Program-made: the position numbers and the translations under genes | Virus record (IMG/VR): IMGVR_UViG_3300025697_002467 | Source of the DNA: a virus | Taxonomy: Duplodnaviria; Heunggongvirae; Uroviricota; Caudoviricetes | Direction: 5' to 3' (one strand) | DNA length: 64,000 nt | Shown: positions 7,327 through 63,783 of the stretch, in pieces | Position numbering within the stretch: the stretch's first letter is position 1 | How the letters are laid out: every line of letters starts with the position of its first letter | Notes under the pieces: generated by a model | Told to the model about the DNA's origin: nothing | Seen by the model: the letters and a program-made list of their open reading frames with translations, nothing else | Databases searched by the model: none

Positions 7327-7359
7327 ATACAACAACCCACGAAAATCAAAAACTAAGCC
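7327..7359 (-). promoter_or_regulatory. conserved phage promoter-like motif (plus-strand text CAACAACCCAC-N9-AAACTAAGCC), copy 1
   Basis: One of at least 13 copies of the same bipartite element with an invariant 9-nt spacer; intergenic between the divergent HNH genes. Confidence 0.45.
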
Positions 7360-7399
7360 GTTATTACCAGCTTGGTATTCTTATAGGGTATAATACCCT

Positions 7400-7774
7400 A
7401 TGAAAGGAAATGTCATGCCTAATCCAAATATTCAATGTTCAGCTTGTGGGAAACCAATCTACAGGTCTCCTCGTCAGATAGCCAAATCAAAAACAGGTCT
7501 TTTCTACTGTTGTAAAGCTCATCAGAAGAAATGGCGTTTCTACAAGATGACAGCATATCGGAAATTGGCTTTCGATAATTTCCCTCATAAATGTGATGAA
7601 TGTGGTTATGATTTCATGGAGATCCTTGAAGTTCATCATGTGGATTTCAACCACAGTAACGACCAGCTCGACAATCTTCGGATCTTATGCCCGAACTGTC
7701 ATCGGGAAATCCATTGGTACGGACGTGGAGAAGCTGCTATGGAAGCAGCTTATGAACCTGACTGGGAAGATTGA
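7400..7774 (+). CDS. HNH endonuclease
   Basis: HHVDFNHSNDQLDNLRILCPNCHREIH plus an N-terminal CxxC...CC zinc finger. It is divergent from the 6299..7168 HNH gene. Confidence 0.8.
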   Translation: MKGNVMPNPNIQCSACGKPIYRSPRQIAKSKTGLFYCCKAHQKKWRFYKMTAYRKLAFDNFPHKCDECGYDFMEILEVHHVDFNHSNDQLDNLRILCPNCHREIHWYGRGEAAMEAAYEPDWED

Positions 7775-8011
7775 CGGTTCTTCAACAACCTAACTAATCT
7801 CGTCCGATACATCCAAGGTATATAGGATTTTAATATTGATGGCCCATACGTAACAGGTTGTAACCCTACCAAAGGTTTTGCTTCCAGGCCATTGGTACCT
7901 CTAAGATGGGAGAGTCACTTGCTTTAAGTTTCTTCAATATCTCCCGGACAATTTCATTCCTGTGATGCTCTGGACCACATATCAATACCATTTTCGGATC
8001 AGGGTCGTCCA

Positions 8012-8227
8012 TTACATATCCTTAAATCGGGTAGCAGCCAGTAACCATCCTGCTGCTATTGTGGAACTCATCCACCCTATTACCCAAGCCCAAGGGATTC
8101 CTTGAGAGGGGTTTTCAACAAACCCGTAAACAATGTCAGCAAATACAAGGATAAGTGATACGATAACAAGCACCAAACCAAACACCCAGCTATTCTTAGT
8201 TGGTGGGTTATATTTTGGAGTTCCCAT
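8012..8227 (-). CDS. small membrane protein
   Basis: Two predicted transmembrane helices in 71 aa. Confidence 0.4.
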   Translation of the reverse strand: MGTPKYNPPTKNSWVFGLVLVIVSLILVFADIVYGFVENPSQGIPWAWVIGWMSSTIAAGWLLAATRFKDM

Positions 8228-8239
8228 GACAGTTTCCTT

Positions 8240-8638
8240 TCAAATACAAGATAGCCCAACGTATGCAGTCAAGGACAAAGTGCTTCGATTCCATTCCACT
8301 TTGTGCATCCATACAGTAATAATACCCTCAAAATCCTTGTTTTCTCTCAGAGCTGTGTCCTCTAGTACGGCAACACGCTCTGCAATCCAGAACCCAAGTT
8401 CTTGATACTGCTTTAATAAAGCTGTATCATCCCGAACTTTTGCTGTATAGGACAACCGTGTTAAAGGAACAATAACATGTTCCTTGGTTGGTTTAAGCAA
8501 CAAAACATTTTCACCACCAGCCCCGATTATGAGGGGCTTCTCTTTAGTCTGTGGTTTAGTCGGTTGTTTTACTGCAAAGTCTGCTCCGTTGTAATCATAT
8601 GGGATTACGTCAGTTACTGTTTTGGTTTCAATGTGCAT
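8240..8638 (-). CDS. hypothetical protein
   Basis: ORF of 132 aa ending just before a tRNA. Confidence 0.5.
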   Translation of the reverse strand: MHIETKTVTDVIPYDYNGADFAVKQPTKPQTKEKPLIIGAGGENVLLLKPTKEHVIVPLTRLSYTAKVRDDTALLKQYQELGFWIAERVAVLEDTALRENKDFEGIITVWMHKVEWNRSTLSLTAYVGLSCI

Positions 8639-8656
8639 AACATTTCCTTTTAAAAA

Positions 8657-8732
8657 TGGTGGAGCTTGTCGGGCTCGAACCGACCACCTTCTGCGTGCAA
8701 GGCAGACGCTCTTCCAGATGAGCTAAAGCCCC
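8657..8732 (-). tRNA. tRNA-Ala (anticodon TGC)
   Basis: Acceptor GGGGCTT/AAGCTCC carries the G3:U70 alanine identity pair; anticodon loop CTTGCAC; encoded CCA. Confidence 0.8.
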
Positions 8733-8942
8733 GAATTACCAATTCATTCTTTGTAACATTTCCAAATGAAGCTGTAGGTTCCCAGCTACCCGACGTGCCT
8801 TCTGTAACTCGACGGTCATCTGTTTAGCGGATTTGGTAAATCCTTTGTCGTCATATTTACAAAGTTTGTATCTGTACATCTCAACAATATCATCCTGATG
8901 AGCTATATTTTTTTTCAGTTTCTTGGATCAGATTATCTACGT

Positions 8943-10550: not shown

Positions 10551-12545
10551 TTAAACTTTCGGGGCATCCATCATCGATCTCATCCGTTTAGTCATCGTTT
10601 TTTTAACCTTGGGGATAACATCATCACCGTTGGCCATGCCCGTCAGGGTTGCAAAGAGTCCGTCCATGGCACTCCCACTGCCACCACCGGTTACGAGAAC
10701 CTTCGGCATGATGTTCATACCATTCTCAGACAAGGAACGAGCCACGTTGACTACTGTAGTTCCCTGCTGACCAATGGCCTCCACTTGCTTCTGATAACCC
10801 TCAGCAAGACCAAGAGCAGTAGCTCTGACTTCGGCAGCTTTAGCAGCACCCGTCATTTCGATGTATGTTGCTTCACCATCAGCTTCGTTTTTACGAGCAT
10901 TGGCTTGGTTCTCAGCAATTTCCATACCGAGTTGGGAACTAACCAGATCTTTCTGCTTGTCAGCCTGAGCATTGGATTTCTCCATCTTGACACGTTGGTT
11001 CTGAGACTCAGTCTGTTTCTTGTAAGTTTCGATTTCCTGATTGGCAATTTCACGTTCGGTCAGGACTTCTACCAACTGTGCTGGCAGGATAACATCCTGA
11101 ATATAGACACCACGGACTTCAACTTCATACTGGCCTAAATGCCTCACGATATGGTCGTTGGCTTCTGTTTGGATGGTTTGACGATCCTCAATGAACTTGA
11201 CAGCAGCCATTGTTTGCAGCTTATCCCGGAAATGGTTACCAACGGCAGCTTGCAAAACTTCATTGATCAGATTTGCCATAGTTCCGACCATCGAAATAAC
11301 CTGTGGGGCTTTCGTGTCAGGAACATGAATCTGCACTTGAAGGTCGATAGTAAATACAAAACCTTCCTTGGATTTAGCACCAATCGAACTGAGCTGTTTG
11401 TCAAGGTCATGAGCGTCAGAAGTAGCATTTGCCCAGTTCAGAGTCAGGATGCTGGTAGGCACCTTTTCAACCTGATAACAACGGGGATTTAAAGCATACT
11501 TACCTGTACGAAGAGGTTCTTGCCAAATACCACGGTGACCAGGTCGGACAAGAGAGCCAAATTTGAACTCAGCACCAGAGATGTCTTCTGTAACCAAACC
11601 GACATAGGCTTTGACCACGGCAACTTGACCCTGTTGGATTACCAACATTGGAGCTTTTTCTACTCTAACGAGGAAGGGGTTCAGTGCATATGCACCATAC
11701 ATCAACGGATCATGCTGGAGTCCCATTGTCCCGCCTTCGTCGAGGAACTTCTGGTAATCCTGATAGTTGTTATGTTTGTCGTTCTGGCTGCCGAGCAATA
11801 GCTCAATCATAGCAGCATCAGAAATTTTATCTTTGCTTGTTTCTATGTCCCCGATGTCTTTGAATCCATTCATACGGGATGCAATATCACCAGCAGGAAG
11901 TGGAGGTCCTTCAAGAGTTGTCACGATACCAATGATATCCTTAACTCCGTTGTTGGAGGAATCTGGTTCGATGACAGTCAACTTGAAACAACTGGGGGAA
12001 AGTCCAAATCGTTCTGAGCCTCGAACTGCTTTTTTCACGTCTTCGGACATTGGAAGCCCGAATACTTTGTCAGAAGTAACGACAAGGAAAGCAACAGGAT
12101 GGATTGGGACGATAGTTCCTGGAGATAGCACAGGACGTTGGATACCTTTTTGACCACCGTTTTCAATGAATACCTTCAAGTCACGATAGTCACCGAAGAT
12201 TTCTTTGTAAGCAGCAGATTTAGCACCGATAGGCAAAGGGTCTCCAATCTGAGATTGAACCACACCAATTTGGCCTGGAGGTACTTGCACCCACGGATGT
12301 TTTTCAACGGAATAAATTGGCCAGAGCATGAATCTCAAGCCAGGCATCAACAAATCAGCTTGATAACCGGCTTCACCATTGAAGGCTATCGGGTTATCCC
12401 CACTCAGTTGTTTAAAGGCAAGGTTTTTGGATACAAGTCCAACCTCGTCCTCATCAATAAAGTGGAACGACTTGATCACCATTCCGGTGATCACGCCTGC
12501 TATAACAGCAAGCACAGCTACAACAAAAAGCACAAGACCAGTCAT
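10551..12545 (-). CDS. flotillin-like SPFH/band-7 membrane protein
   Basis: N-terminal transmembrane helix, a central SPFH-like region, and a C-terminal Ala/Glu/Gln-rich coiled-coil of the flotillin type (YqiK-like). Confidence 0.65.
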   Translation of the reverse strand: MTGLVLFVVAVLAVIAGVITGMVIKSFHFIDEDEVGLVSKNLAFKQLSGDNPIAFNGEAGYQADLLMPGLRFMLWPIYSVEKHPWVQVPPGQIGVVQSQIGDPLPIGAKSAAYKEIFGDYRDLKVFIENGGQKGIQRPVLSPGTIVPIHPVAFLVVTSDKVFGLPMSEDVKKAVRGSERFGLSPSCFKLTVIEPDSSNNGVKDIIGIVTTLEGPPLPAGDIASRMNGFKDIGDIETSKDKISDAAMIELLLGSQNDKHNNYQDYQKFLDEGGTMGLQHDPLMYGAYALNPFLVRVEKAPMLVIQQGQVAVVKAYVGLVTEDISGAEFKFGSLVRPGHRGIWQEPLRTGKYALNPRCYQVEKVPTSILTLNWANATSDAHDLDKQLSSIGAKSKEGFVFTIDLQVQIHVPDTKAPQVISMVGTMANLINEVLQAAVGNHFRDKLQTMAAVKFIEDRQTIQTEANDHIVRHLGQYEVEVRGVYIQDVILPAQLVEVLTEREIANQEIETYKKQTESQNQRVKMEKSNAQADKQKDLVSSQLGMEIAENQANARKNEADGEATYIEMTGAAKAAEVRATALGLAEGYQKQVEAIGQQGTTVVNVARSLSENGMNIMPKVLVTGGGSGSAMDGLFATLTGMANGDDVIPKVKKTMTKRMRSMMDAPKV

Positions 12546-13448: not shown

Positions 13449-13464
13449 AAAAAAGTTTTTCTCA

Positions 13465-13497
13465 ATACAACAACCCACGACTTTTCAAAACTAAGCC
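13465..13497 (-). promoter_or_regulatory. conserved promoter-like motif, copy 2
   Basis: Lies between gmk and the third CAT tRNA; same motif and spacer. Confidence 0.45.
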
Positions 13498-14204: not shown

Positions 14205-14242
14205 TCTTACCTCAACAACCCACAAAAAAGAGAAACTAAGCC
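14205..14242 (-). promoter_or_regulatory. conserved promoter-like motif, copy 3
   Basis: Lies between tRNA-Gly(CCC) and gmk. Confidence 0.45.
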
Positions 14243-23395: not shown

Positions 23396-23432
23396 CTTAC
23401 TACAACAACCCACGGGAATCCAAAACTAAGCC
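23396..23432 (-). promoter_or_regulatory. conserved promoter-like motif, copy 4
   Basis: Extended form TTCTTACTACAACAACCCAC...AAACTAAGCC. Confidence 0.45.
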
Positions 23433-27197: not shown

Positions 27198-27419
27198 CTA
27201 CGTCACACCGGACACCTCAATATCATTATGACCATTTTCTTCTGGACGATTTGATGGTGCTGGGGCTGATCCCACGACTACACAAATCTGTCCAACGGCC
27301 ATAATCTTGGCTGCTTGTTTGACTGATTGTTTGTTGTCGTGTCTGCGTATCATCTTCTTCTCCATAGTTGCTCTAATAGGAAATTTGATTTTCCTGAGCA
27401 TTAAGTATCCAAAATACAA
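27198..27419 (-). CDS. hypothetical small protein
   Basis: ORF of 73 aa. Confidence 0.3.
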   Translation of the reverse strand: MYFGYLMLRKIKFPIRATMEKKMIRRHDNKQSVKQAAKIMAVGQICVVVGSAPAPSNRPEENGHNDIEVSGVT

Positions 27420-27493
27420 GCTCTTTAAAAGAATGTCAAGAACTTTTTTAAGTTATTTTCAATTTAATTACCAAGACTTTTTTTATCGTCTTG

Positions 27494-27528
27494 TAGTACA
27501 ACAACCCACAAGAAATCAAAACTAAGCC
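27494..27528 (-). promoter_or_regulatory. conserved promoter-like motif, copy 5
   Basis: Lies downstream of the NAD-operon distal gene, about 75 nt upstream of the 27419 start. Confidence 0.45.
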
Positions 27529-32098: not shown

Positions 32099-32134
32099 AC
32101 ACTTCAACAACCCACGAGAATCCAAAACTAAGCC
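32099..32134 (-). promoter_or_regulatory. conserved promoter-like motif, copy 6
   Basis: About 50 nt upstream of the ATG at 32054. Confidence 0.45.
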
Positions 32135-43416: not shown

Positions 43417-43450
43417 ATATCAACAACCCACAACTTCGGGAAACTAAGCC
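43417..43450 (-). promoter_or_regulatory. conserved promoter-like motif, copy 7
   Basis: Immediately upstream of the nadE RBS: GTGGGTTGTTGATATAGAAGGAGAACCAAAATG on the coding strand. Confidence 0.45.
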
Positions 43451-44946: not shown

Positions 44947-45027
44947 ATTTTCAAACCTTCCTTACTTTATAAGTTAGTGTGTCTTTCACACTAAGTCAAG
45001 CTGTTTCTCAAAAGAACTTCATATTTC

Positions 45028-45063
45028 TTACCCCAACAACCCACAAGAAATGAAAACTAAGCC
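45028..45063 (-). promoter_or_regulatory. conserved promoter-like motif, copy 8 (minus-oriented half of a divergent pair)
   Basis: Back-to-back with the inverted copy at 45078..45113. Confidence 0.45.
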
Positions 45064-45077: not shown

Positions 45078-45113
45078 AGCTTAGTTTCGGGTAGTAGTGG
45101 GTTGTTGTAGTAG
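45078..45113 (+). promoter_or_regulatory. conserved promoter-like motif, copy 9 (plus orientation)
   Basis: AGCTTAGTTT-N9-GTGGGTTGTTGTAGTAG sits about 24 nt upstream of the ATG at 45134, the first gene of the plus-strand operon. Confidence 0.5.
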
Positions 45114-49455: not shown

Positions 49456-49490
49456 GGCTTAGTTTTCGTTTCCCGTGGGTTGTTGAAGTG
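49456..49490 (+). promoter_or_regulatory. conserved promoter-like motif, copy 10 (plus orientation)
   Basis: GGCTTAGTTT-N9-GTGGGTTGTTGAAGTG sits about 40 nt upstream of the ATG at 49526. Confidence 0.5.
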
Positions 49491-53263: not shown

Positions 53264-53267
53264 TTTA

Positions 53268-53648
53268 TTACTCCTTCAAAGCCTCTACAGTAGCACGTAT
53301 AACATGATTAACTATGGTCTCGGCCATAGCAGCCGGAGGGATATTATAATCAATCTTGAAGTCAGGAAGCTTCTCTTTGGAAATACCCTTAACTTCTCCC
53401 CGGAACTGGACGAACCCAGTTGCAGTAAAATAATGTAAAATAACATCAACAGACTCAGAACCCAATTTCAACGTGAAACCTAACCGGCTATTAAGCAGAG
53501 CCGTCAATTTCACAAGAGATACTTTACGGTCACGCCTGAGTTCCATTCCTATAAACGGCCATAGTGTCTTGTCAACAAACTCAGGATACATATCCACAAA
53601 AGGTGCATCCCGAACTGCCAGTTTTTGATATTCACTTATAGGTAACAT
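53268..53648 (-). CDS. hypothetical protein
   Basis: ORF of 126 aa. Confidence 0.5.
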   Translation of the reverse strand: MLPISEYQKLAVRDAPFVDMYPEFVDKTLWPFIGMELRRDRKVSLVKLTALLNSRLGFTLKLGSESVDVILHYFTATGFVQFRGEVKGISKEKLPDFKIDYNIPPAAMAETIVNHVIRATVEALKE

Positions 53649-53880
53649 CTCAGGTTACTCCTTACAAAATATAAGACTTCCTACCAAAGGGTATCCTATA
53701 AGGGAAAAATTGCCAATAGAATAATACACCAACCCTCATATTTATAGTTAGGGAAAAAACTCGTATTACAGGTATTCAAAGAAACACTCCGCCGCCGGGA
53801 AAAATTAGTTCAAAATAAAAATCGAATATACGATATCACAAATCCCGTTTCAAAAAAGCTCTCATATAAAGGGCCCTTCT

Positions 53881-54096
53881 CTAAGGGAACCTTAGTCTAT
53901 TGATTCTCTCCTGCAACTCATTCCATTCTTCTTCCTCAGTAGGGTCGTCAGGATTCCAAGGGTTCTCCATCCTACAGTATGCCTTCTCATATTCTTCTGG
54001 GGAACGGTCTGGTATCTTAAACATATCTACACCTCCTGTATAGTATACGATCATAGAACGGATTCGTGACAAACAAAGGGGATTCCAATACCCCAT
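53881..54096 (-). CDS. hypothetical acidic small protein
   Basis: ORF of 71 aa. Confidence 0.35.
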   Translation of the reverse strand: MGYWNPLCLSRIRSMIVYYTGGVDMFKIPDRSPEEYEKAYCRMENPWNPDDPTEEEEWNELQERINRLRFP

Positions 54097-54348
54097 TTCA
54101 ATGTTGGTCCTCCGTTTTCAATGCACATCCAATACGCGTTTTTGAGGGGGTCGGTACTTTCTTCGAAATTTACTAATCGGTTATACAGATGTGACCGGGT
54201 GGGGTCTCCAGAGAGGGGTGTTGTTATCACAGTTATAACTCAGAGGGATAGGTTGTTTTCAGGTTGTTTTCAGGTTGGTCACTTACAACTTGGGTTGAAG
54301 GACCGACCAACCTACGGATTTTTTCCCTAGCTATCAATGAGTGCTCCA

Positions 54349-54594
54349 TCACCACCCTGCTTGGTGTTCTTCACAAATGCAGTGACAGGAGCAAAACTCT
54401 CCTGCCCGTTCTTTCTTTACACAGTCTGTTATAGGATAGAACAAATGTTTACAGTGGGGACATGTCACACTGGTGTCCTCTGTAGCTTCGGTTACAGTGA
54501 ACCACTGATTACACTCAGGACACTTGACCATGATGTTCCCAGTTTCTGATATTGCTGTCGGTACTAAGACTGTCTCTTGATCCATATTAATCAA
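54349..54594 (-). CDS. hypothetical zinc-ribbon protein
   Basis: CPECN...CPHCKH...C-rich, 81 aa. Confidence 0.45.
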   Translation of the reverse strand: MINMDQETVLVPTAISETGNIMVKCPECNQWFTVTEATEDTSVTCPHCKHLFYPITDCVKKERAGEFCSCHCICEEHQAGW

Positions 54595-54860
54595 CCCTCT
54601 CTGTTTCGACCTGGATACCGTGCTGTCTCATTTCTTCCTCCAAGGCTATGATGTTGTGGTACGGACACTGCTCCCCTGGACTCCATCCCATACAGGATCT
54701 GTTGGCTGCCTTGCATGGTGGGGTAGTCCCCCTGACTCCAAGGGTCTGCTACCCAATCGTTCGGTACATGTCCGCAATATTTACAGTTGTCTGCCAGTAG
54801 GCATTGATGCTTCGACATGGTTAGTGCGTCTCCAATTCTGATGGTGGATAGTAACCACAT
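54591..54860 (-). CDS. hypothetical protein
   Basis: ORF of 89 aa with CKYCGH. Confidence 0.4.
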   Translation of the reverse strand: MWLLSTIRIGDALTMSKHQCLLADNCKYCGHVPNDWVADPWSQGDYPTMQGSQQILYGMESRGAVSVPQHHSLGGRNETARYPGRNREG

Positions 54861-55810
54861 AGTCTGGCCACCTCTCGTATCGTGACCATAGCTTTACCTA
54901 TTGAGGTACGGCTGATGTCTAACATCTCAGCCATGTCTCCGTGTGTGTACCCTTGACCAAGCAGAGGGACAACTCGTAAGGCCAGACGATTCTCCCTGGT
55001 AGGTCTGCTCAATAGCATCAGGGACAGGTCGTCCGTCATAGTAGATTGTTTACGTGGGTCCTTGGTATGTTTCTCAGCTAATCCTTCCGCTGCATCAGCC
55101 TCTTTCCATACTCCGTCCTTCATCATCTTCATACCTACCATCTCAGCCTTGGCTCGACGAGACTCCTTACGATGATAGTTCGATAGAATACACCGGCACA
55201 CCTGATGAACGTAATGACCAAAGGATGCCTTCCTCACATCGAAGGGACACGTACCCTTGTTACGGATCAAGATCCCTTTATATACTTCCTGCAACACTTC
55301 CTGCGGATCATACCCGGACCCAAAGATCCAATTCTTGAAACCTGCAAACAAAAGTTTAGCAACCTCGTGGCCTCTTTCGTCTAAATTTATCCCAAGTATC
55401 GGCCCGTTAGGAAACTTCTGCATATCTATCAGTGCTTGTTCGGCACAAGTAAGTTTTAAGTTTCCCTTAGCTTGTAAACTTTTAGGGTTGATAGTTAGGT
55501 TCTGAGTTGATTTAGTTTTACCGGGGACGATTATCCCGGCATCTGTAACGATGCCACCGGGTTCAAAGAGGTCGAGTACGGGAACGATTGGTTGGATGTC
55601 ACGTTGAGGCGGTGACCAGATTCCTTGTTTGAAGTACCGGTCGAAAGTCCAGTTACGAGCTTGGGGGTGACCGGTGAGATTAATGATTAGTTGACGAGCT
55701 GAGGAACAGATTACTTTTTCGTGAGGCTTGTGGATTTCGTACTGGCCGTCGTCTCTCATGTAAACTGGAAAACTGCCATCTTGATACCGACTGTATAATA
55801 ATCTCTCCAT
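54821..55810 (-). CDS. sigma-70-family (ECF-like) sigma factor with a ~170-aa N-terminal extension
   Basis: Region-2-like QEVLQEVYKGILIRNKGTCPFDVRKASFGHYVHQVCRCIL. Region-4.2-like TRENRLALRVVPLLGQGYTHGDMAEMLDISRTSIGKAMVTIREVARL. Confidence 0.6.
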   Translation of the reverse strand: MERLLYSRYQDGSFPVYMRDDGQYEIHKPHEKVICSSARQLIINLTGHPQARNWTFDRYFKQGIWSPPQRDIQPIVPVLDLFEPGGIVTDAGIIVPGKTKSTQNLTINPKSLQAKGNLKLTCAEQALIDMQKFPNGPILGINLDERGHEVAKLLFAGFKNWIFGSGYDPQEVLQEVYKGILIRNKGTCPFDVRKASFGHYVHQVCRCILSNYHRKESRRAKAEMVGMKMMKDGVWKEADAAEGLAEKHTKDPRKQSTMTDDLSLMLLSRPTRENRLALRVVPLLGQGYTHGDMAEMLDISRTSIGKAMVTIREVARLCGYYPPSELETH

Positions 55811-56294
55811 GCATCACCTCATTTTCAATAGGACTGGATAACTACATCTTCTACCCGAAAATCATTTTGATTTTCAAAATACATTCACAATTTTATTTTC
55901 AATGCGTGTTTGGATTTTTTCAAATATACACACTAAGTCCACACCTTTACTCCCACCTTTGAGAAAGGTTGGGGGGCTACGGGGTGGGTCGGTAATACCA
56001 TCATCAACAGGGTTCCCATATTTACGGGGGAGTATTTACAGCATGATTTCTTTTGTCTATATCAGGTCAGATACGATAAAGCAAGCAAAAAGGTATAATA
56101 GGTTAAGAAAAGGGTTATCTCTGTAACTAGTATTGATGGGGGGGTCACTGAGATTTAGGGATTTATGAGCTCTTTTGTTTTACCAGCATCCTCTTTTAGG
56201 TTTAGGGTACATAGAGTCTACCTATGATTGTTTGATAAGCAGGGATAGTATTCTGTGTCCTTTACGAGTTGCTTGTATTTCGTAAGCCATTGTG

Positions 56295-56915
56295 TTAGTC
56301 CTCCTTTACTACTATGAAATAGGTCACCCATACGAAGTCCCCATTACTATTTTGTTTGGTAGTAACATCTGTAATTTCTATAATGAGGTCATCTGATAGT
56401 TTTTCAAACGATCCTGTACGGGTATAAGGGTAGAGTACGAAACGGAATGGACAATTAGTATACTCAGGGTCAAAGAAATGACCCCCGAAGAAGTGAGCTC
56501 CGAAGCCTTTAGACCCTTCATACACTTTTACTGTAACATCCTTGAGCTTCTTTTCAGGCTGGTTATCAAACAACCGTTCAGTGCGGGTTAAGGTTCCTTC
56601 ACGGATATCCGAATAAACTGTACCTTTGTGGAGATTAGGGAACAGTTTCATAGTCTTGGGCGTGTCCTTAAAGTGTTCCTGTCCTGCTGGTGGTTCTTGA
56701 GGGGTATTTAAAGTTTTCTGGGCTTCTACTGTAATGCCTGCTGCCATTAGGAGGCTACTGGCTTGTTTAGCTCTGATATTGATATTATCAAAAATGTTGG
56801 CTGATGTTTCATTACCTAAAGATTTAGCTGTGTTAGAGGCTAATTCCAGGTCTTCTTGTACACGTAGGAGGTTATCTATACCTTCTTGTATTTGTTTTGC
56901 TTGTTCTTCATTCAT
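56295..56915 (-). CDS. hypothetical protein
   Basis: ORF of 206 aa directly downstream of the C5-MTase gene. Confidence 0.5.
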   Translation of the reverse strand: MNEEQAKQIQEGIDNLLRVQEDLELASNTAKSLGNETSANIFDNINIRAKQASSLLMAAGITVEAQKTLNTPQEPPAGQEHFKDTPKTMKLFPNLHKGTVYSDIREGTLTRTERLFDNQPEKKLKDVTVKVYEGSKGFGAHFFGGHFFDPEYTNCPFRFVLYPYTRTGSFEKLSDDLIIEITDVTTKQNSNGDFVWVTYFIVVKED

Positions 56916-57994
56916 TGTTTGTTCCGTTCTGTAAGGATGTTTTTAACTAACCGTGCTAAGAAAAAAGAAATCTTTGGTGGTACTGCATTCCCTATCTGTC
57001 TACTGATGGATCGTTTGCCGCCATAGAATACGAAGTCATCAGGGAAACTTTGAATCCTTGCTGCTTCTCTGGGTGATAGTGTTCTATTTTCAGTAGGGTG
57101 TATAAATCTACCACCTGTAGGTGTATCAAATCTTGTTGTTATTGTTACGGACTGTTTATGCCAATCCATCCTTCCATATGACCCACTGTGTACTGATTTG
57201 ATTGTTTCATCTAATACTGTATAGTTTTCACCTGTCTTAATCAGTTTCATTCTTTCAACAGCCGTTTTTGAATGTTTTGCCTGCCAGTGGTTTTTTATTG
57301 TTTTGCCTGTACAGGCTAGGTATTTCTCATAATTTGTTTGAGGTGTTGGATTATCTACTACTCCGTCTTTGCTTACAGTAGGTAGATTCCCGATTGCATT
57401 GTGTATGTTTACTGTATCGAAGTATGATGGGTTTAGTTCGTTCTTGGTTTGTTCCCAGAGTTTGTTTATGTCTGTATCCAGCGTTGTACCAATAACTATG
57501 AGTCGTTCTCTTTTCTGTGGTATCCCGAAGTCTGATGTTTTGATTATTACGGAAAATAGTTGATAGGGTTCATTGAGTGTATTGAATGCTTGTTTTATTT
57601 CTTCGAAGATTTTACCTTTCTTCATTGTCAACATGCCTTTGACGTTTTCCATTACGAACACTTTTGGTTTCACCATTGATACTATGTTGAGGTAATGCTT
57701 GAACAGGTAGTTTCTGGGATCATTGGTAAAGTTTTGTCTTATTCTGGCTCCGGCCATTGAGAATCCTTGACATGGAGGTCCACCGATGATTACGTCCTTC
57801 ACCTTGTTTAAAGGAGTTTTATCTACATTCTTGATATCATCTACGATCATCTTTATTTCTGGGTGGTTCAGTTTATAGGTATTGGCAATCATAGGGTCAA
57901 ATTCCACAGCTTTCTCTATGATAAACCCTTCTTTTATGAAGCCGAGAGAAAACCCACCACATCCAGCAAATAGGTCAATTACTTTGATTGACAT
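56912..57994 (-). CDS. DNA cytosine-5 methyltransferase
   Basis: DLFAGCGG (motif I), GGPPCQGFS (motif IV), ENV (motif VI) and QIGNAVPP (motif X). Confidence 0.9.
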   Translation of the reverse strand: MSIKVIDLFAGCGGFSLGFIKEGFIIEKAVEFDPMIANTYKLNHPEIKMIVDDIKNVDKTPLNKVKDVIIGGPPCQGFSMAGARIRQNFTNDPRNYLFKHYLNIVSMVKPKVFVMENVKGMLTMKKGKIFEEIKQAFNTLNEPYQLFSVIIKTSDFGIPQKRERLIVIGTTLDTDINKLWEQTKNELNPSYFDTVNIHNAIGNLPTVSKDGVVDNPTPQTNYEKYLACTGKTIKNHWQAKHSKTAVERMKLIKTGENYTVLDETIKSVHSGSYGRMDWHKQSVTITTRFDTPTGGRFIHPTENRTLSPREAARIQSFPDDFVFYGGKRSISRQIGNAVPPKISFFLARLVKNILTERNKQ

Positions 57995-58000
57995 TATACT

Positions 58001-59155
58001 TTATCCTTTGAGCTTTTTCTTTAAACGGTTCTGGTAAACTAGAACAGATTGGCAATCAAATCCTTTGTGGAACCCTGTCATAAACATTGATTTGAGAAGA
58101 TTCTCCCCGACATTGTTTGTTTTTAACTTGGGTAGGTGTTTGGTTTTAAAATGATTCTCAGACCGATCTTGATATGTAATATTGTACCGTATCTCAGGAT
58201 CATTGGGGGCATCTTTATCACATTCAGCTCTACCATCTTCGAATCCTGCAAGGAACATTTTTTCAGCTTGTTCTTCCCCTGTCTTTGTTCTGAGGAACTC
58301 TGGGACTTGTGGGTCTGGAGGGTTATCATTCTCAGTTATACTCTTATACAATCCAGCAAAGTGTTCATGCGGAAATGTGTCTAATGGTGGCAGCTTTAAC
58401 TCCAGTACCTCTTGTTCTTCTGTGGTAAGGACTACAGGAGCTTTCTTAGGGGCTTTTTGTTCCTTGGCTTTGTTACGTTCTCTGTATTGTTTGATACGTT
58501 CACTGTAACTGTCAAGGGAGTAGAAACTGATATCAAACTTCTTCAAGAGCTTTGTAAGTTTATCCCAGTCAGTAAGGGCATGAAGGAGCATCTTGGTTGC
58601 TTCCTCTGTAAAAGTGTAGCTCTTGGGATCTACATGGATATTCTTCTCCATGTAGCCTGGGTTATTTATATCCCATATTAGCCTTCGGGTACATCTATGA
58701 GTTCCATAGATATCGAGCCTACGTTCTTCTTCCTCTATCATTTTCCATTTTAACTCTTGGTGTATTCTTTCTTGGCAGTCTGCTATGAACTCTTGAAGGA
58801 ACTTTTTACGGAATTTTCTGGTTAGGCTGGGGTGTCCTTGGTATTTGTCGTTGTTGGAGTCTTCTTCTGGTTTATAGTGGAAGTAGGAGACATCTGAATA
58901 GCCATGATAGAAATTATGGAGTCCGACAGAGCCTATGGTTCCATTTTCTATAGGTAGATTCATCCAGCCTCTCCAACCACCTCTTCCTATTTCCTCTTGT
59001 CCTGTAAAAGCTACTTTATGGATATCACACATGTCCTCAAGTAGTCCTTGAACGGGTTGTATTTCTTTCTTGTATTCGGCTCGTTCTTCCGCTCTCCGTG
59101 CTGACCAGGCATCTTGTCTTTTCTCAGCTTGTTCTTGTGTTATGTAACAGGGCAT
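58001..59155 (-). CDS. hypothetical protein upstream of the C5-MTase
   Basis: ORF of 384 aa; no catalytic motif recognised. Confidence 0.55.
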   Translation of the reverse strand: MPCYITQEQAEKRQDAWSARRAEERAEYKKEIQPVQGLLEDMCDIHKVAFTGQEEIGRGGWRGWMNLPIENGTIGSVGLHNFYHGYSDVSYFHYKPEEDSNNDKYQGHPSLTRKFRKKFLQEFIADCQERIHQELKWKMIEEEERRLDIYGTHRCTRRLIWDINNPGYMEKNIHVDPKSYTFTEEATKMLLHALTDWDKLTKLLKKFDISFYSLDSYSERIKQYRERNKAKEQKAPKKAPVVLTTEEQEVLELKLPPLDTFPHEHFAGLYKSITENDNPPDPQVPEFLRTKTGEEQAEKMFLAGFEDGRAECDKDAPNDPEIRYNITYQDRSENHFKTKHLPKLKTNNVGENLLKSMFMTGFHKGFDCQSVLVYQNRLKKKLKG

Positions 59156-59370
59156 TATCTTCTCCTTTTATCACATTTTCTTTTCAGGTCATTTGGATGA
59201 ATACATTTCAGTTCTTTCATGTGTTCCTGAGTACGGTCTCCATAGTCAATAACTTGATCCAGAAATTTTTTACCTTCTGGGGTTGAGAAAAGGGATTTGA
59301 GTGTTCTTTTCTTCATCCTAATCCTTGTGCTTGTTCGATGTATCTCCATTGTGTGACTGTGTAGCCCCAT
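59155..59370 (-). CDS. hypothetical basic protein
   Basis: ORF of 71 aa. Confidence 0.35.
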   Translation of the reverse strand: MGLHSHTMEIHRTSTRIRMKKRTLKSLFSTPEGKKFLDQVIDYGDRTQEHMKELKCIHPNDLKRKCDKRRR

Positions 59371-59654
59371 TTGTTTATTTTGCCATAGATACTAGAGAGC
59401 CATTGACCATCTTCATAGCAGCCGTGTTCTATTGATCTTGTATCAAGATCAATTTCGACCTTCATGTTCTCTGGCGGGGTCTTGTCATCTGGGTTGATCC
59501 ATCCATCGTTGTCGTCTGGTATTCCCTTGGTTGTTTTACGATCACATTCAGGGCAATAGAGGTCTGTTTTACCTTGTGGTTCAAAGGAGCTGTTACATTT
59601 GACGCAGGTTCCTTTTGTCCAGTTGATATATTTCCAAAATTGTTCTTCTTTCAT
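59313..59654 (-). CDS. hypothetical zinc-ribbon protein
   Basis: CVKCN...CPECD in 113 aa. Confidence 0.45.
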   Translation of the reverse strand: MKEEQFWKYINWTKGTCVKCNSSFEPQGKTDLYCPECDRKTTKGIPDDNDGWINPDDKTPPENMKVEIDLDTRSIEHGCYEDGQWLSSIYGKINKWGYTVTQWRYIEQAQGLG

Positions 59655-59721
59655 GTCTGATCCTATCCTTGATTATAGTTTTTAATAGCTGCTGATTCTT
59701 TTATTGTGTATGGGTCTTATA

Positions 59722-59976
59722 TCAATGTTTTTCTTTTAGTTCCAGTCTGAAAACATTTGTTAGATGCTTGACACATTGGTAATTGCAAAGATCTCTATAA
59801 AATTTAACGGCACATCTTTTGTAACAGCATACCGGAATGGTATCCCAATTCTTTTCTTTTTCTACTTCGGTCTTACACAGAATAATTGAATCTTTACCAT
59901 ACTGCTCGGCCTCTTTGTGCATTTCACCGCAGGAACACATTAGGAAAGCCATTATTAAAATCATAAAATATCTCAT
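59722..59976 (-). CDS. putative lipoprotein, Cys-rich
   Basis: Signal peptide with a lipobox-like LMCSCG; 84 aa. Confidence 0.45.
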   Translation of the reverse strand: MRYFMILIMAFLMCSCGEMHKEAEQYGKDSIILCKTEVEKEKNWDTIPVCCYKRCAVKFYRDLCNYQCVKHLTNVFRLELKEKH

Positions 59977-59992
59977 TGTTTTCGGTCCTTTC

Positions 59993-60433
59993 TTATCTAA
60001 ATCCGGGGTATCGGTATCTCTTATGCTTCTTCACAGGGTTTGGGTGTCCTAAACAGCCTAGAAGGAATGTATCTGAGTTGTTTCTTTTACCCATTAGTTT
60101 TTTGTTATCTTCATAGAGGGCAGTTCCGATCCATACGCAGCATTGTTGTATTTCTTTATGTGAGCATTGGGTGCATTCTATGTCTTTGAGGGAGCTTTGG
60201 ATCACTTCATACTCTGATGATCCTATGTCTGTGTATTGAGTTCCTGCACATATGTTACGTGTTATGACTCCCAAGTCATAATGCTTGTCTAATTCTCCTA
60301 CACGTAAGGTTGGCAGGTTTATTAAAAACAAGTATAATAGCCACATAACCCCTAAGACGATAAATAGGATAAGAAGGTTACCGAACCAGTCATTTTTTCT
60401 TTTCTTTTCAGTCATTGTTATTATATGTTTCAT
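59993..60433 (-). CDS. membrane-anchored hypothetical protein
   Basis: N-terminal transmembrane helix; Cys-rich ectodomain. Confidence 0.5.
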   Translation of the reverse strand: MKHIITMTEKKRKNDWFGNLLILFIVLGVMWLLYLFLINLPTLRVGELDKHYDLGVITRNICAGTQYTDIGSSEYEVIQSSLKDIECTQCSHKEIQQCCVWIGTALYEDNKKLMGKRNNSDTFLLGCLGHPNPVKKHKRYRYPGFR

Positions 60434-60690
60434 AACGTCCTTACCATTTTCTCATAGGAGTCCATAGTCACTGCCATGGTTTTTATTTCTTTTTGAAGGG
60501 CTTCTTCATTTGACTTTGCCTTTTTTCTTATTTTTTCAAGCCTTTTTATGTCATCAGACAGAGATTTCCCGTCGGTGTCATCTTGAATCATACTTTCATA
60601 TTCCCATGAAATTACTTCATCGACTGCTATTTCTAATTCCTTAAGTCGTTGAAGTAACTCTTTATTTTTATTTTTTAATAAGTTTATCAT
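60430..60690 (-). CDS. hypothetical coiled-coil protein
   Basis: ORF of 86 aa. Confidence 0.45.
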   Translation of the reverse strand: MINLLKNKNKELLQRLKELEIAVDEVISWEYESMIQDDTDGKSLSDDIKRLEKIRKKAKSNEEALQKEIKTMAVTMDSYEKMVRTL

Positions 60691-61052
60691 TTGACCTTTA
60701 TCCCCTTGGATAATCGTCTTTCCAAGGTTAGAGTAGGAATATTAACATTATCCTTAACATCTATACAAATACGTCCTTTACCATCAGGAGTGTACAACCA
60801 AGCATTAAGCTTTAAATAACTATTGTTTTTATAACATACTTCTGTTGCTTGTTTAGAGAATAGCTCTTTCACGTTCCAAGGCTCTACAACTAACTGAGAA
60901 AACAGAAAACCAGCTATAAATATAACCACTACAACCATTACAGTACCTAATGGGCAGCATTTTTTATTATTTGTCATCATTTTCCCCATCGTTGATGAAC
61001 TCTGGACCTTCTGGGTGTACCAGAGGATTATAGAATCCGCACCTTGGCCCAT
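60687..61052 (-). CDS. membrane protein
   Basis: Transmembrane helix; 121 aa. Confidence 0.45.
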   Translation of the reverse strand: MGQGADSIILWYTQKVQSSSTMGKMMTNNKKCCPLGTVMVVVVIFIAGFLFSQLVVEPWNVKELFSKQATEVCYKNNSYLKLNAWLYTPDGKGRICIDVKDNVNIPTLTLERRLSKGIKVK

Positions 61053-61191
61053 CTATCTCATGACAGACACATTTTTCTGGAGTTTCCGTCCACATACATC
61101 CGCCACAATCTCTTATATCAAGACAGGTCAGTTTAGTTTTCCAGTCCTTTGGTAATGTTTTATACCTCATAAGTAGCCTCTTTACTTTCAC
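60967..61191 (-). CDS. hypothetical Cys-rich protein
   Basis: ORF of 74 aa overlapping its neighbour. Confidence 0.35.
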   Translation of the reverse strand: MKVKRLLMRYKTLPKDWKTKLTCLDIRDCGGCMWTETPEKCVCHEIDGPRCGFYNPLVHPEGPEFINDGENDDK

Positions 61192-61796
61192 TAAATCAGA
61201 AAAAAATTCATTCCACTACTGACAAGAACCAGACTGCTATTTTTCCAGTTTGTAAAACGGGTCAGCATGTTGTCCCACAACGAGGACTTAGGTTCTGTTT
61301 GGGTCTTTTCTGGAAAAAAGATAATAGAACAAATATCTTCGTTAAACACTTTGGGTTTATTTATCATTGGCTTAATTGGTGTAGTTGGTTTAGGCCAAAT
61401 AACTTTTCTTTTTTCTTTTTCTCTCCATCGGAGGGTTCTAAGAAAACACTGTTCGGCTTTTCCGTAAACCTCACAGTGTTCTGCTGCAGAACCAGCCACA
61501 GCAGCAGCATGGACGGCAGTTCCAGAGTCAGCTACTTCAAACACTTCAAGATATGTCCAGTCAATAGGGATGTCTCCATAAACGAAAATAGCCAAACCCC
61601 TATCCTTAGTACTCACGATCCAATTGTCAGATTGGATTTTCCTACCCCCTTTCAGACCCCTGACCATGTGGTTGTTGCCTACCTGTAGGAATGGGGTAGC
61701 TATGGGGATTCCGTGTTTAAGACCTCTCCAAATATGGTCTCCAACTTGAGGGATGTCTAAGAGTTCATAGGTTTTTGGTAGTCTGCATTTTATCAT
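61191..61796 (-). CDS. hypothetical protein
   Basis: Start moved to the internal Met MIKCRLPK (RBS aaggagcaaactatg), because the listed start lies inside the promoter motif. Confidence 0.5.
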   Translation of the reverse strand: MIKCRLPKTYELLDIPQVGDHIWRGLKHGIPIATPFLQVGNNHMVRGLKGGRKIQSDNWIVSTKDRGLAIFVYGDIPIDWTYLEVFEVADSGTAVHAAAVAGSAAEHCEVYGKAEQCFLRTLRWREKEKRKVIWPKPTTPIKPMINKPKVFNEDICSIIFFPEKTQTEPKSSLWDNMLTRFTNWKNSSLVLVSSGMNFFLI

Positions 61797-61810
61797 AGTT
61801 TGCTCCTTCT

Positions 61811-61845
61811 TACTACAACAACCCACAACTTTCAGAAACTAAGCT
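61811..61845 (-). promoter_or_regulatory. conserved promoter-like motif, copy 11
   Basis: Directly upstream of the RBS of the gene starting at 61796. Confidence 0.45.
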
Positions 61846-62464
61846 AATCCAAGTCTGGTGGTGTCCAGACCGTATGGGGATATAGTAGTCCTTCTGGCAA
61901 ATGTATCAACTGTTCTCTCTTGATCGAACGAGACCAATCAAAATATTTCTTTTCAGGGTGTATCCAAGCTCTAGGGTACGAGACAAGTGTACTCCCTTCA
62001 TGTAAGACTTTACCCTTTGGTACTCCAAGGGAGGTTTTCGTTGGATTCAGGCAAACTGCCAGACCTTTAGGAATAATGACTCTGAATCCATTCATGCTGA
62101 TAACATACTCACAGGTTGTGAGCCACAGGCTGAAATGAACCAGTTCAGGGTCTTCATTTTCAGTTACTTCAAAGTAATCGTTCAGGAGTTTAACTCCATA
62201 GATGTGAATGTCATCAGCAGGGTGTATTTTCTGGTCTCCCCATTGTTTAGCTGGTATTTTATCATAATAGATACCGAACTCCGGTGTAGGGGGTGCAGGA
62301 CGTTGAAAATAGACGTGGGTATGTGTGTGTGTGGATATAATGTTGATCGTCGTTCCTAGACCGTCTAAGACCCCTTTTGAGTGATTTGGGGCAGGGTATG
62401 TCCAGTCCTTCGGATGAACCCATGGAAAGAAGGATTGGAATCCTGTTGGATCGTTATTTGACAT
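61844..62464 (-). CDS. hypothetical protein
   Basis: ORF of 206 aa containing an HTHTHV stretch encoded by an (AC)n microsatellite. Confidence 0.5.
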   Translation of the reverse strand: MSNNDPTGFQSFFPWVHPKDWTYPAPNHSKGVLDGLGTTINIISTHTHTHVYFQRPAPPTPEFGIYYDKIPAKQWGDQKIHPADDIHIYGVKLLNDYFEVTENEDPELVHFSLWLTTCEYVISMNGFRVIIPKGLAVCLNPTKTSLGVPKGKVLHEGSTLVSYPRAWIHPEKKYFDWSRSIKREQLIHLPEGLLYPHTVWTPPDLD

Positions 62465-62714
62465 GTTTTTCGGCCCCTCTGTTTAGTTCCAATCTTGATC
62501 TCATTATGGCTCTCAGAGAGCTTTCGATACTTTTCGTAAAGAACTCAATCATAATTTCTGCTACTGCACCCCCTCTTATTTCCCAGAACTCCTGTTGTTT
62601 TTGGTACCTGATGATATCTTGTTCATTGTATCTGATAAAAGCATTGATTCTTTCTTCATCAGATTTGCTTGAGTCTTGAAACAGCAGGTAATCTTCAGAT
62701 AGTTGTGTTGTCAT
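62454..62714 (-). CDS. hypothetical protein
   Basis: ORF of 86 aa. Confidence 0.4.
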   Translation of the reverse strand: MTTQLSEDYLLFQDSSKSDEERINAFIRYNEQDIIRYQKQQEFWEIRGGAVAEIMIEFFTKSIESSLRAIMRSRLELNRGAEKHVK

Positions 62715-62977
62715 GACTGTTTCCTTTTGATTGAGGCTTCAGCAAACTCTACATCGTTAATAAGGTTTTTATAAGAAAATCTTATGTTGAAGTCAGATGT
62801 GAGGTGGATGTCTTCATGATCTATGTCAAAACTATTGCAGGTTAGTAAGAGCCAACCAAGGTCTTTTACCATGCTGCCTGTTCCTTTAAGGGCAAAGACT
62901 CTAGCAGCTAATGCTGGGAGTTTTTTACCGATTGTTTTCATGCTGTCAAAGTATTTTATAATTCCTGCTTCGTTCAT
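62711..62977 (-). CDS. hypothetical protein
   Basis: ORF of 88 aa preceded by the promoter motif and RBS aaaaggagaacaatcatg. Confidence 0.45.
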   Translation of the reverse strand: MNEAGIIKYFDSMKTIGKKLPALAARVFALKGTGSMVKDLGWLLLTCNSFDIDHEDIHLTSDFNIRFSYKNLINDVEFAEASIKRKQS

Positions 62978-62993
62978 GATTGTTCTCCTTTTC

Positions 62994-63029
62994 TTACTTC
63001 AACAACCCACAATAAAGAGAAACTAAGCC
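62994..63029 (-). promoter_or_regulatory. conserved promoter-like motif, copy 12
   Basis: About 20 nt upstream of the ATG at 62977. Confidence 0.45.
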
Positions 63030-63039
63030 AGAAAAGAAA

Positions 63040-63372
63040 TTATTTGATTTCGTAAAGTTCCACCCATTCTGTTTTGATCCAGAATTTCCATTTAGGAACA
63101 CGTTTAACGGCCATGAATAATATGTCTGAGTTGTTGTAGAGGTCATCAAAGACATCATAAGCTGCCTGGAATGCTGCCTCAGCATCGTTCATGGTGTCGT
63201 AGCGGGTTGCGTTATCAAGACCCCATATGAAATCATAGCCTTTCCTGTAAAAGTCGTTGGGGTGGTGATTTGGGTCGTATTTCAGGTATGTCGGAGTGTC
63301 ATACCTGCCGGTTAAGCTCTTGATAATGATGGTTTCCTGTTTCATTATGATCTTTCCTTTTGCATTACTCAA
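63040..63372 (-). CDS. hypothetical protein
   Basis: ORF of 110 aa. Confidence 0.5.
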   Translation of the reverse strand: MSNAKGKIIMKQETIIIKSLTGRYDTPTYLKYDPNHHPNDFYRKGYDFIWGLDNATRYDTMNDAEAAFQAAYDVFDDLYNNSDILFMAVKRVPKWKFWIKTEWVELYEIK

Positions 63373-63712
63373 TCAGTTCAGCTTTTTCTTTTGTAATAGC
63401 TGCCAAACATTTGCTTTCACACATTTCCTGATCTTTTTTTGATGTATAGAGCAGCCATATATCTGAACATTCACCTTTACAGCATGAGGTAGTGTATTTA
63501 GATTCGAGGCATTGATATATAACTCGTGACATTTTCTGATTGATATTGTTTTCGAGCAGTTCATTAAACGTCTGGTCCATATCCAGACTATTTAGAGCTT
63601 TGCTGCATTTCTTGATGCCCACTGCTACCACAATTATCAGTGCTATAACTACAAGTATTGATGCAATAGTTACAACCCAGTCTTTTATTGATTTTTTTGT
63701 TTCTTTAGTCAT
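63365..63712 (-). CDS. membrane-anchored hypothetical protein
   Basis: N-terminal transmembrane helix; preceded by the promoter motif. Confidence 0.5.
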   Translation of the reverse strand: MTKETKKSIKDWVVTIASILVVIALIIVVAVGIKKCSKALNSLDMDQTFNELLENNINQKMSRVIYQCLESKYTTSCCKGECSDIWLLYTSKKDQEMCESKCLAAITKEKAELIE

Positions 63713-63746
63713 TTTCTCTCTCCAAGATTAGGGTTAATGTTTCTTT

Positions 63747-63783
63747 CTTACTACAACAACCCACAGATTAAAGAAACTAATCC
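63747..63783 (-). promoter_or_regulatory. conserved promoter-like motif, copy 13 (variant AAACTAATCC)
   Basis: About 36 nt upstream of the ATG at 63712. Confidence 0.4.

Follow-up and report, generated by a model that had tools for sequence, protein, structure and literature searches.

A two-box motif repeated before the operons of an uncultivated huge phage: a putative phage promoter class and its candidate sigma factor

The 64,000 nucleotide (nt) stretch of Caudoviricetes DNA held as IMG/VR record IMGVR_UViG_3300025697_002467 (the window) carries 13 copies of a 34-base motif, made of two boxes of 10 and 11 bp with a 9-bp spacer between them, and a gene for a divergent sigma-70-family protein that may read it. 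According to the list of open reading frames (ORFs) and to ARAGORN, genes and all tRNAs in the segments 1-45000 and 50900-64000 lie on the minus strand, and only 45134-50389 is encoded on the plus strand. The initial annotation had the copies reading into the gene downstream. Their orientation toward the next gene or tRNA holds for 13 of the 13 copies, but the gene strand being minus, the motif as it was first written runs antisense to the genes. Read along the genes, its consensus is (A/T-rich)-T-GGCTTAGTTT-N9-GTGGGTTGTTG-nn-(G)T-R. The copies (strand of the gene served) and the candidate reader are:

7326..7359, minus strand: copy 1; Shine-Dalgarno sequence and ATG of a 23-codon ORF 14 nt on, then an HNH endonuclease gene and a long operon with tRNAs.
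13464..13497, minus strand: copy 2; tRNA-Met 14 nt on; the upstream ORF, a guanylate kinase, stops in box 1.
14209..14242, minus strand: copy 3; 9 nt past tRNA-Gly; Shine-Dalgarno sequence and ATG of a short ORF (longer in the relative L066) 16 nt on, then guanylate kinase.
23399..23432, minus strand: copy 4; between tRNA-Glu and an atypical tRNA-like gene 58 nt on.
27495..27528, minus strand: copy 5; then a conserved sigma-70-like promoter, a 73-aa ORF, a strong terminator and a tRNA cluster.
32101..32134, minus strand: copy 6; Shine-Dalgarno sequence and ATG of a 134-aa ORF 46 nt on.
43417..43450, minus strand: copy 7; NAD synthase gene 15 nt on; the upstream NAMPT-like gene stops in box 1.
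45030..45063, minus strand: copy 8; left-facing copy of a divergent pair; sigma-70-like promoter, then the NAMPT-like gene 83 nt on.
45078..45111, plus strand: copy 9; right-facing copy of the pair; methyltransferase gene 22 nt on.
49456..49489, plus strand: copy 10; 70-aa ORF 36 nt on, then a 215-aa ORF whose homologue in the relative L099 has a faint HD_4 match.
61812..61845, minus strand: copy 11; ATG 15 nt on; the sigma gene lies 6 kb downstream.
62996..63029, minus strand: copy 12; ATG of an 88-aa ORF 18 nt on.
63750..63783, minus strand: copy 13; ATG of a 115-aa ORF 37 nt on.
54821..55810, minus strand: candidate reader, a 329-aa divergent sigma-70-family protein.

Scanning the window for the motif as first written (ACTACAACAACCCAC-N9-AAACTAAGCC, up to three mismatches) returned 13 matches at the same coordinates as previously listed, those at 45078 and 49456 being on the minus strand and the other 11 on the plus strand; 100 dinucleotide-preserving shuffles gave none. 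The recurrence is real and far beyond chance. When the core boxes GGCTTAGTTT and GTGGGTTGTTG (21 positions) were searched with up to six mismatches and spacers of 7-11, the mismatch counts were bimodal: the 13 copies have 0-1 mismatches, no site has 2-4, and sites with 5-6 occur at the rate found in shuffles. Zero copies have a spacer of 7, 8, 10 or 11, which bears out the fixed length of 9 (13/13) proposed at the outset. Neither box is found alone anywhere in the window, all 13 occurrences of box 2 and all 10 of exact box 1 being inside the motif, and a dyad search with the 13 copies masked yielded no second over-represented two-box motif, only tRNA features.

A 20-kb megablast query found no close relative of the window among 50,697 deposited phage records, and the sigma protein, searched by tblastn, gave a single match, in one uncultured 485-kb phage, and no cultured relative. 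A scan of metagenome contigs with TTAGTTT-N9-GTGGGTTGTTG returned 84 stretches, in about 70 of which the extended motif is complete and leads to a Shine-Dalgarno sequence and ATG; they belong to the series Ga0307928, Ga0075116, Ga0075125, Ga0114918 and Ga0210003, and one Ga0075116 contig, of 165 kb, has several copies. In these ~70 contigs the boxes are invariant while the spacer and the flanks diverge, an invariance that at 18 positions is set by the search pattern itself across the 80 unique sites. Comparison of orthologous intergenic regions between the window and L070 or L007 likewise shows the boxes kept within diverged sequence. Among the 80 sites the GGC of motif positions 1-3 is conserved at 80-90%, the 13 nt upstream of the motif are A/T-rich, and the motif extends downstream by an invariant T34 and by a purine at position 35 (99%). 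The spacer sequence, which had been taken as variable, does vary among sites, but not freely: its position 8 is T in 88% and its position 6 is A in 62% of the sites.

The distance from the motif end to the start codon or tRNA is 7-83 nt for the window copies, in broad agreement with the 14-150 nt given initially, so that the earlier reader was probably thinking of the correct downstream genes. The copies, first described as all intergenic, are nearly so, three of them reaching 2-7 nt into the 3' end of the ORF before them; box 1 of the copies at 13464 and 43417 supplies the TAG stop codon of that ORF. A purine-rich Shine-Dalgarno sequence and a start codon follow the motif (e.g., ...TAGT aagaaggagcaaactATG and ...ATAT agaaggagaaccaaaATG), except behind the copies at 13464 (tRNA-Met) and 23399 (the tRNA-like gene), where a tRNA takes the place of the ORF. 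The presence of the motif before tRNA genes as well as protein genes means that it cannot be a translation signal. The tRNA-like gene (23265-23340, minus strand) scores 45 bits with the Rfam tRNA model and has an anticodon stem CCUGC/GCAGG closing a 6-nt loop, CAGAGU, to which ARAGORN cannot assign an anticodon.

Extending the count to 82 unique sites (window and L001-L085), 63 have a Shine-Dalgarno sequence and an ORF within 100 nt downstream, against 29 in the opposite direction, many of these from divergent pairs. The distance to the start is bimodal, ~8-18 nt and ~32-42 nt with few values between. The remaining sites in relatives precede tRNAs, a phage transfer-messenger RNA (tmRNA; L002) or an amber-suppressor tRNA (L027 and L030). 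A comparison with the promoters of related phages, suggested in the initial annotation, thus found the same motif in ~70 contigs, mostly before genes or tRNAs. The genes behind it include NAD-dependent DNA ligase-like, RtcB-like, PARP/WGR-like, NAMPT and NAD synthase genes (names assigned by eye unless supported by Pfam), and no clearly structural gene was seen behind a copy in the window or its relatives. The back-to-back pair reported at the ~45.0 kb strand switch consists of two copies facing outward, each toward its own gene; outward-facing pairs also mark divergent junctions of ~10 related contigs. The convergent junction of the window (50.4-50.9 kb) has no motif and carries strong hairpin and T-run terminators on both strands.

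Some of the RNA genes behind the motif deserve mention on their own. A CTA-anticodon tRNA (called "Pyl" by ARAGORN) lies ~10 nt past a copy at 4303-4378 (plus strand) of L027 (contig Ga0075116_10000003) and at 3293-3368 (plus strand) of L030 (contig Ga0307928_10027735). This amber-suppressor tRNA could mean that TAG is recoded in this phage group; the window itself ends two genes at the box 1 TAG. The tmRNA of L002 (409-757, minus strand), with the tag peptide ANTQLAAA*, is directly behind a copy, and a tmRNA-like 5' end without an ARAGORN call follows a copy in L076.

Orientation, position, conservation and the lack of a common RNA fold (see below) all fit the phage-specific promoter of the initial proposal, and the motif very probably represents a promoter class of the phage's own. 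The candidate for its reader is the 54821-55810 protein, for which regions 2 and 4.2 of a sigma-70/extracytoplasmic function (ECF)-type factor had been claimed; a profile match, the predicted fold and Foldseek agree on that assignment. From its N-terminus, the protein has a conserved domain (residues ~1-70), then a disordered linker, a sigma-2-like domain at ~140-225 and, at ~258-318, a sigma-4 helix-turn-helix (HTH). Its AlphaFold model (mean predicted local distance difference test score, pLDDT, of 79) shows a small beta/alpha N-terminal domain, the disordered linker, a helical segment at 143-224 and the HTH at 258-318, so that both a sigma-2 fold (region 2.1-2.4 helices) and a sigma-4 HTH are predicted to be present in the 329 residues. 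Foldseek against PDB returned sigma-factor chains or RNA-polymerase complexes in 49 of the 50 top matches, with ECF sigma factors at the top ranks (probability up to 0.99, best E = 3.6e-3). A profile of 42 homologues matches the sequence of the sigma-H crystal structure (3mzy) from region 2 to the C-terminus (E = 1.9e-5), and there is a weak match to PHROG 1740, "sigma factor" (E = 3.4e-5). Pfam assigns no family at E <= 0.01, the best hit in a search to E = 10 being a marginal HTH_7 (E = 0.14), and standard annotation would consequently miss the protein. It has 538 database homologues, on contigs of up to 528 kb, a few of which bear the Joint Genome Institute (JGI) label "sigma24 family" or a precomputed PF07638 match. 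The exact sequence is found on a 402-kb contig, which puts the phage genome at 402 kb at least. Pfam scans of ORFs covering most of the window recognized no further sigma factor and no RNA polymerase subunit, MotA or AsiA.

The sigma protein and the motif were compared in four genomes, listed with the identity of their sigma to that of the window, the sigma-2 helix and sigma-4 residues, and the boxes:

window, sigma 100%: sigma-2 helix HQVCRC, sigma-4 ISRT, box 1 GGCTTAGTTT, box 2 GTGGGTTGTTG.
L009, sigma 77%: HQVCRC, ISRT, box 1 GGCTTAGTTT, box 2 GTGGGTTGTTG (helix residues read from P0002, its 78%-identical database counterpart).
L169, sigma 69%: HQVCRC, ISKT, box 1 GGCTCAGTTT, box 2 CTGGGTTGTTG, N9 spacer.
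L099, sigma 67%: HRVCQC, ISRT, box 1 GGCTTAGTTT, box 2 CTCGGTTGTTG, N9 spacer; four exact copies and one degenerate.

A diverged sigma thus appears to go with altered boxes in these close relatives, a correlation within a small sample. The sigma-2 helix segment probably aligns with those residues of sigma-70 region 2.3-2.4 that touch the -10 element at its upstream edge. Two other contigs with sigma variants, L170 and L100, are short and tightly packed; they have zero motif copies and add nothing to the co-variation.

More distant homologues were found at 68 IMG/VR loci, on contigs of up to 618 kb; their identity is 27-45%, over the greater part of the protein or a portion of it, and reaches 59% in a few short fragments. 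Dyad searches of the 20-kb neighbourhoods of sigma homologues, a crude method, detected two-box motifs there that are specific to the lineage, strongly conserved and oriented into genes or tRNAs. L126 has GGTTAGTT-N13-CTCGGTA, clearly related to the motif of the window, L122 has GTGTAAC-N11-CGTGCTACAC and L107 has GGTTCC-N15-CCGTAA. In L131 the motif is GGTTAC-N16-CTCCGTGG, with ATG ~8 nt on. The L107 and L131 motifs (GGTTCC/GGTTAC ... CCGT) resemble the ECF consensus GGAAC-N16-17-CGT. Many of the other loci gave no clear motif with this method, and k-mer and dyad searches gave none at several distant sigma-bearing ones (e.g., L098, L101 and L119). L131 (12282-19193) comes from a GC-rich (67%) phage in which 11 motif copies stand ~8 nt before an ATG without Shine-Dalgarno sequence, an arrangement that suggests leaderless or near-leaderless mRNAs.

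As far as sequence goes, the choice of the 54821-55810 protein as candidate reader is supported, by the correlative link of its co-variation with the boxes in relatives. We give a probability of roughly 0.6 to the reading in which this sigma, with the host core enzyme, recognizes the motif. The two-domain, ECF-like phage sigma would bind the host core RNA polymerase, its sigma-4 HTH reading GGCTTAGTTT at about -34 to -25 and its sigma-2 domain reading GTGGGTTGTTG at about -15 to -5. In many cases the first base of the Shine-Dalgarno sequence falls within motif positions 36-41, which, together with the invariant T34 and the purine at 35, leaves little room for a start downstream of position ~36. 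Transcription may thus begin at the purine of position 35, right after the invariant T; this agrees with the usual preference for a pyrimidine at -1 and a purine at +1, and a +1 at position 35 would place the boxes at -34..-25 and -15..-5, the regions read by sigma-4 and sigma-2. This would give 5' leaders of ~8-80 nt whose first base is at the Shine-Dalgarno sequence or shortly ahead of it, or else short pre-tRNA leaders, and the A/T-rich flank of the motif would lie at the position of an UP-element. What the sequences show directly is the statistics, orientation, position and conservation of the motif and its lack of RNA structure, the sigma fold of the protein, and the co-occurrence and co-variation of the two in relatives; the start site, the contacts between domains and boxes, the use of the host core and the timing of expression we infer.

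It is doubtful, though conceivable, that the N-terminal domain is a third DNA-reading module acting on the A/T-rich upstream flank or on the biased spacer. Residues 1-70 are predicted with confidence, and their best structural matches, all weak, are SAND-like, MPND and CcrM C-terminal DNA-binding domains. If true, this would be a sigma with three points of contact, which would explain the 21 or more invariant positions.

Three further features concern the region before the sigma gene and a second promoter type:

55811..56294, minus strand: 484-nt non-coding region upstream of the sigma gene, without motif; its proximal ~100 nt (with a TTGAAA hexamer) are conserved in relatives.
27411..27439, minus strand: sigma-70-like promoter TTGACA-N17-TATTTT, in tandem downstream of copy 5, conserved in L070.
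44971..44999, minus strand: sigma-70-like promoter TTGACT-N17-TAACTT, in tandem downstream of copy 8, conserved in L007.

Having no motif of its own and lying behind a long non-coding region, the sigma gene would presumably be expressed first by the host holoenzyme. No convincing minus-strand terminator was found between copy 11 (61812) and the sigma gene; read-through from that copy could therefore give positive feedback. A long non-coding gap (480-840 nt) precedes the sigma gene also in homologues (L099 4377-5215, L169 3180-3726, L097 9446-10000, L098 9523-10000), persisting even in those that are ~40% identical, and the ~100 nt next to the gene (gcaTTGAAAATAAA ... ttcgggta) are conserved among close relatives. 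This conserved stretch could be a regulatory leader or a non-coding RNA. The strict pattern TTGAC(A/T)-N16-18-TAnnnT has three sites only in the window, two of them conserved in relatives, and scans with generic sigma-70 consensus sequences were not enriched over shuffles. The two conserved sites suggest that the host uses canonical sigma-70 promoters and that the 27.4-kb and 45.0-kb units are served by both classes.

Several points weigh against a promoter read by this sigma. The genes served, in nucleotide and NAD metabolism or coding tRNAs, look early or middle, whereas the sigma needs prior synthesis. The 21 invariant positions are far above what site specificity needs, and the boxes GGCTTAGTTT and GTGGGTTGTTG do not show the AAC (-35) and CGT (-10) elements, ~16-17 bp apart, by which ECF promoters are typically recognized. 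The sigma-4 recognition helix of L126 is very unlike that of the window despite a similar -35-like box (GGTTAGTT), which means that there is no simple code linking helix and box, and shared lineage would produce part of the sigma-motif pattern without a functional link. Finally, the 64 kb of the window are a fraction of a genome that has 402 kb or more, and another sigma or a phage RNA polymerase could be encoded elsewhere.

This last point is the starting place of the alternative that survives best, namely that the motif is a promoter read by a second sigma or by a phage RNA polymerase (single- or multisubunit) encoded outside the window and possibly delivered with the virion. Virion delivery would suit the early or middle character of the genes, which also include ligases; relatives have four ORFs of 1128-2144 aa that Pfam does not match, and sequence kept almost unchanged over more than 21 positions is commoner in promoters of phage RNA polymerases of the T7 type than in sigma-dependent ones. 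The layout, two boxes with a variable spacer of fixed 9-bp length extending from about -34 to -5, is nonetheless sigma-like and differs from the contiguous -17..+6 element of T7-like enzymes. No polymerase domain was found with Pfam in the window ORFs scanned or in eight large ORFs of relatives; the large ORFs show Cas3-like and vWA domains only. The boxes, moreover, change together with this sigma in relatives, and its distant homologues are accompanied by two-box motifs of their own. We regard such a reader as unlikely, while leaving it a real share of the probability.

A less probable alternative is sigma appropriation as at the T4 middle promoters, in which a phage activator bound to box 1 would redirect host sigma-70 and box 2 would be an unusual -10 element. 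Box 1 contains GGCTTAG, and its GCTTAG at about -33 to -28 is near the MotA box TGCTTtA at ~-30; the tandem arrangement of sigma-70-type and motif promoters also recalls the tandem early and middle promoters of T4. Box 2 (GTGGGTTGTTG), however, has no TAnnnT hexamer, while the phage has canonical TTGACA-N17-TAnnnT sites elsewhere, and host sigma-70 would therefore not be expected to read box 2. Box 2 is as invariant as box 1 and co-varies with residues of the phage sigma-2 helix, and no MotA or AsiA family match was found in the window ORFs scanned. Appropriation is thus improbable.

Least probable of all is a role as RNA processing or antitermination site, terminator, or boundary of recombination or mobile cassettes between genes, to which the position of the copies at gene boundaries (some right after tRNAs), their extreme conservation and the differing genes found behind an identical 34-mer in relatives, as at a recombination hotspot, would be suited, but which is opposed by the strict orientation bias toward the downstream gene, by the absence of a common hairpin, U-tract or consistent fold, by the different look of the real terminators of the window, by an Rfam scan that matched tRNAs and not the motif, and, for processing, by the outward pairs at divergent junctions, which have no upstream transcript to process. 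Folding of the 13 copies with their flanks gave differing weak structures (mean z-score -0.3) with no shared hairpin or U-tract; the terminator or RNA-processing site named in the initial annotation as the case against a promoter did not materialize. Two candidates were rejected separately, an intrinsic terminator, as the copies have no G+C-rich hairpin with U-tract and the terminators of the window sit elsewhere, and an RNA-structure element, as the copies have no consistent fold. A recombination role could still be secondary, beside promoter activity, and it is conceivable, if doubtful, that the near-identical 34-mers are exchange points at which related huge phages shuffle their gene cassettes.

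Other features of the window and its relatives are recorded here. Genes related to NAD are dense at 28505-33379 and 42301-44946 (minus strand), several of them directly behind motif copies: an NMNAT-like cytidylyltransferase, a Nudix protein with NrtR winged helix, a macro domain with thioesterase, an ADP-ribosylglycohydrolase, NAD synthase and a NAMPT-like protein. The segment 1116-26917 has 28-29 tRNA genes, all on the minus strand and many with an encoded CCA followed by TTT(T); HNH endonuclease genes are found among them at 6299-7168 (overlapping tRNA-Gln) and 24065-24778. The adjacent paralogous ORFs 50941-51522 and 51488-52813 (minus strand) share near-identical segments (MSNLR.KLVKLANDNPDGIREHLVP ... 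KQAGYTHY ... PFTDQEWSKII) and have no family match. The window also codes for a Ser/Thr protein kinase (34016-35740), a PP2C-like phosphatase (39034-39942), an N6/N4 DNA methylase (38255-39037), a C5 cytosine methylase (56912-57994), an HU-like DNA-binding protein (47512-47874) and a 664-aa SPFH/Band 7 protein (10551-12545). In related contigs, CRISPR-like arrays of short repeats (13-16 repeats) and Cas3-like genes lie near the sigma gene (L097 1-2053 with an array at ~5200-6800, L099 ~6300-7200, L018 2-2647), and L099 and L169 have anti-CRISPR-like Pfam matches (AcrVA2-like and an AcrIF11 ADP-ribosyltransferase).

We know of no transcription signals for this clade of uncultivated huge phages. 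The window provides a concrete candidate pair of promoter and sigma, and lets operon boundaries be annotated in these genomes; it also draws attention to a large sigma family (538 matches) that is invisible to Pfam. As far as the searched literature shows, the consensus, the sigma family and its N-terminal domain are undescribed, although the principle is expected; a literal search of the papers covered for the box sequences returned unrelated primer sequences only. The natural variants at the upstream edge of box 2 (GTG, CTG and CTC) and in the helix (HQVCRC/HRVCQC) are suited to a specificity swap. Highly specific sigma-promoter pairs are useful as orthogonal parts in synthetic biology, and if the doubtful reading of a three-contact sigma and of cassette shuffling is true, the family of more than 500 members would be a natural library of mutually orthogonal pairs.

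Among known systems, the cascades of SPO1 (gp28, gp33/34) and T4 (gp55) are those in which phage sigmas replace the host sigma, early genes using host-type promoters. The candidate described here would likewise redirect the polymerase to promoter classes of the phage. In SPO1 the consensus is different and less conserved, and T4 gp55 reads a single -10-type element, TATAAATA, with the help of gp33 and the sliding clamp, unlike the two boxes of the window. With the MotA/AsiA promoters of T4 and with its promoter-stem-loop cassettes the motif shares a partly MotA-like box 1 and repetition at gene-cassette boundaries, sometimes in tandem with sigma-70-type promoters; it differs in having no TAnnnT at -12..-7, no stem-loop, and no MotA or AsiA among the window ORFs. 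The closest structural matches are the bacterial group 4 (ECF) sigmas (SigH, SigE, SigW and SigK), which have sigma-2 and sigma-4 without sigma-3 and highly specific two-box promoters. The phage protein departs from them by the lack of a Pfam ECF match, by an added ~135-residue N-terminal domain, and by the absence of a recognized anti-sigma gene next to it.

Phage sigma-70 genes have been noted in surveys of huge phages (PMC7162821), and jumbo phages without an RNA polymerase of their own encode sigmas that presumably direct the host enzyme to phage-specific promoters (PMC7824862, PMC13282480), a picture that the present candidate leaves unchanged. Its nearest parallels are gp47 of Salmonella phage 7-11, which reads a two-box GTAAtg-N16-aCTA promoter with starts 6-9 bp downstream (PMC8948821), and gp36 of phiEco32, whose promoters carry tAATGTAtA (PMC8948821, PMC12276001). 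The boxes of the window are unrelated to these, longer (10 + 11 bp) and almost invariant, and its sigma has an extra conserved N-terminal domain and no detectable sequence similarity to gp47 or gp36. The genes served here look early or middle, unlike those of the late promoters of 7-11. The shared plan would be that of a divergent phage sigma working with the host core on a consensus repeated before operons, and, as in 7-11, of a two-box promoter whose transcripts probably start shortly past the second box.

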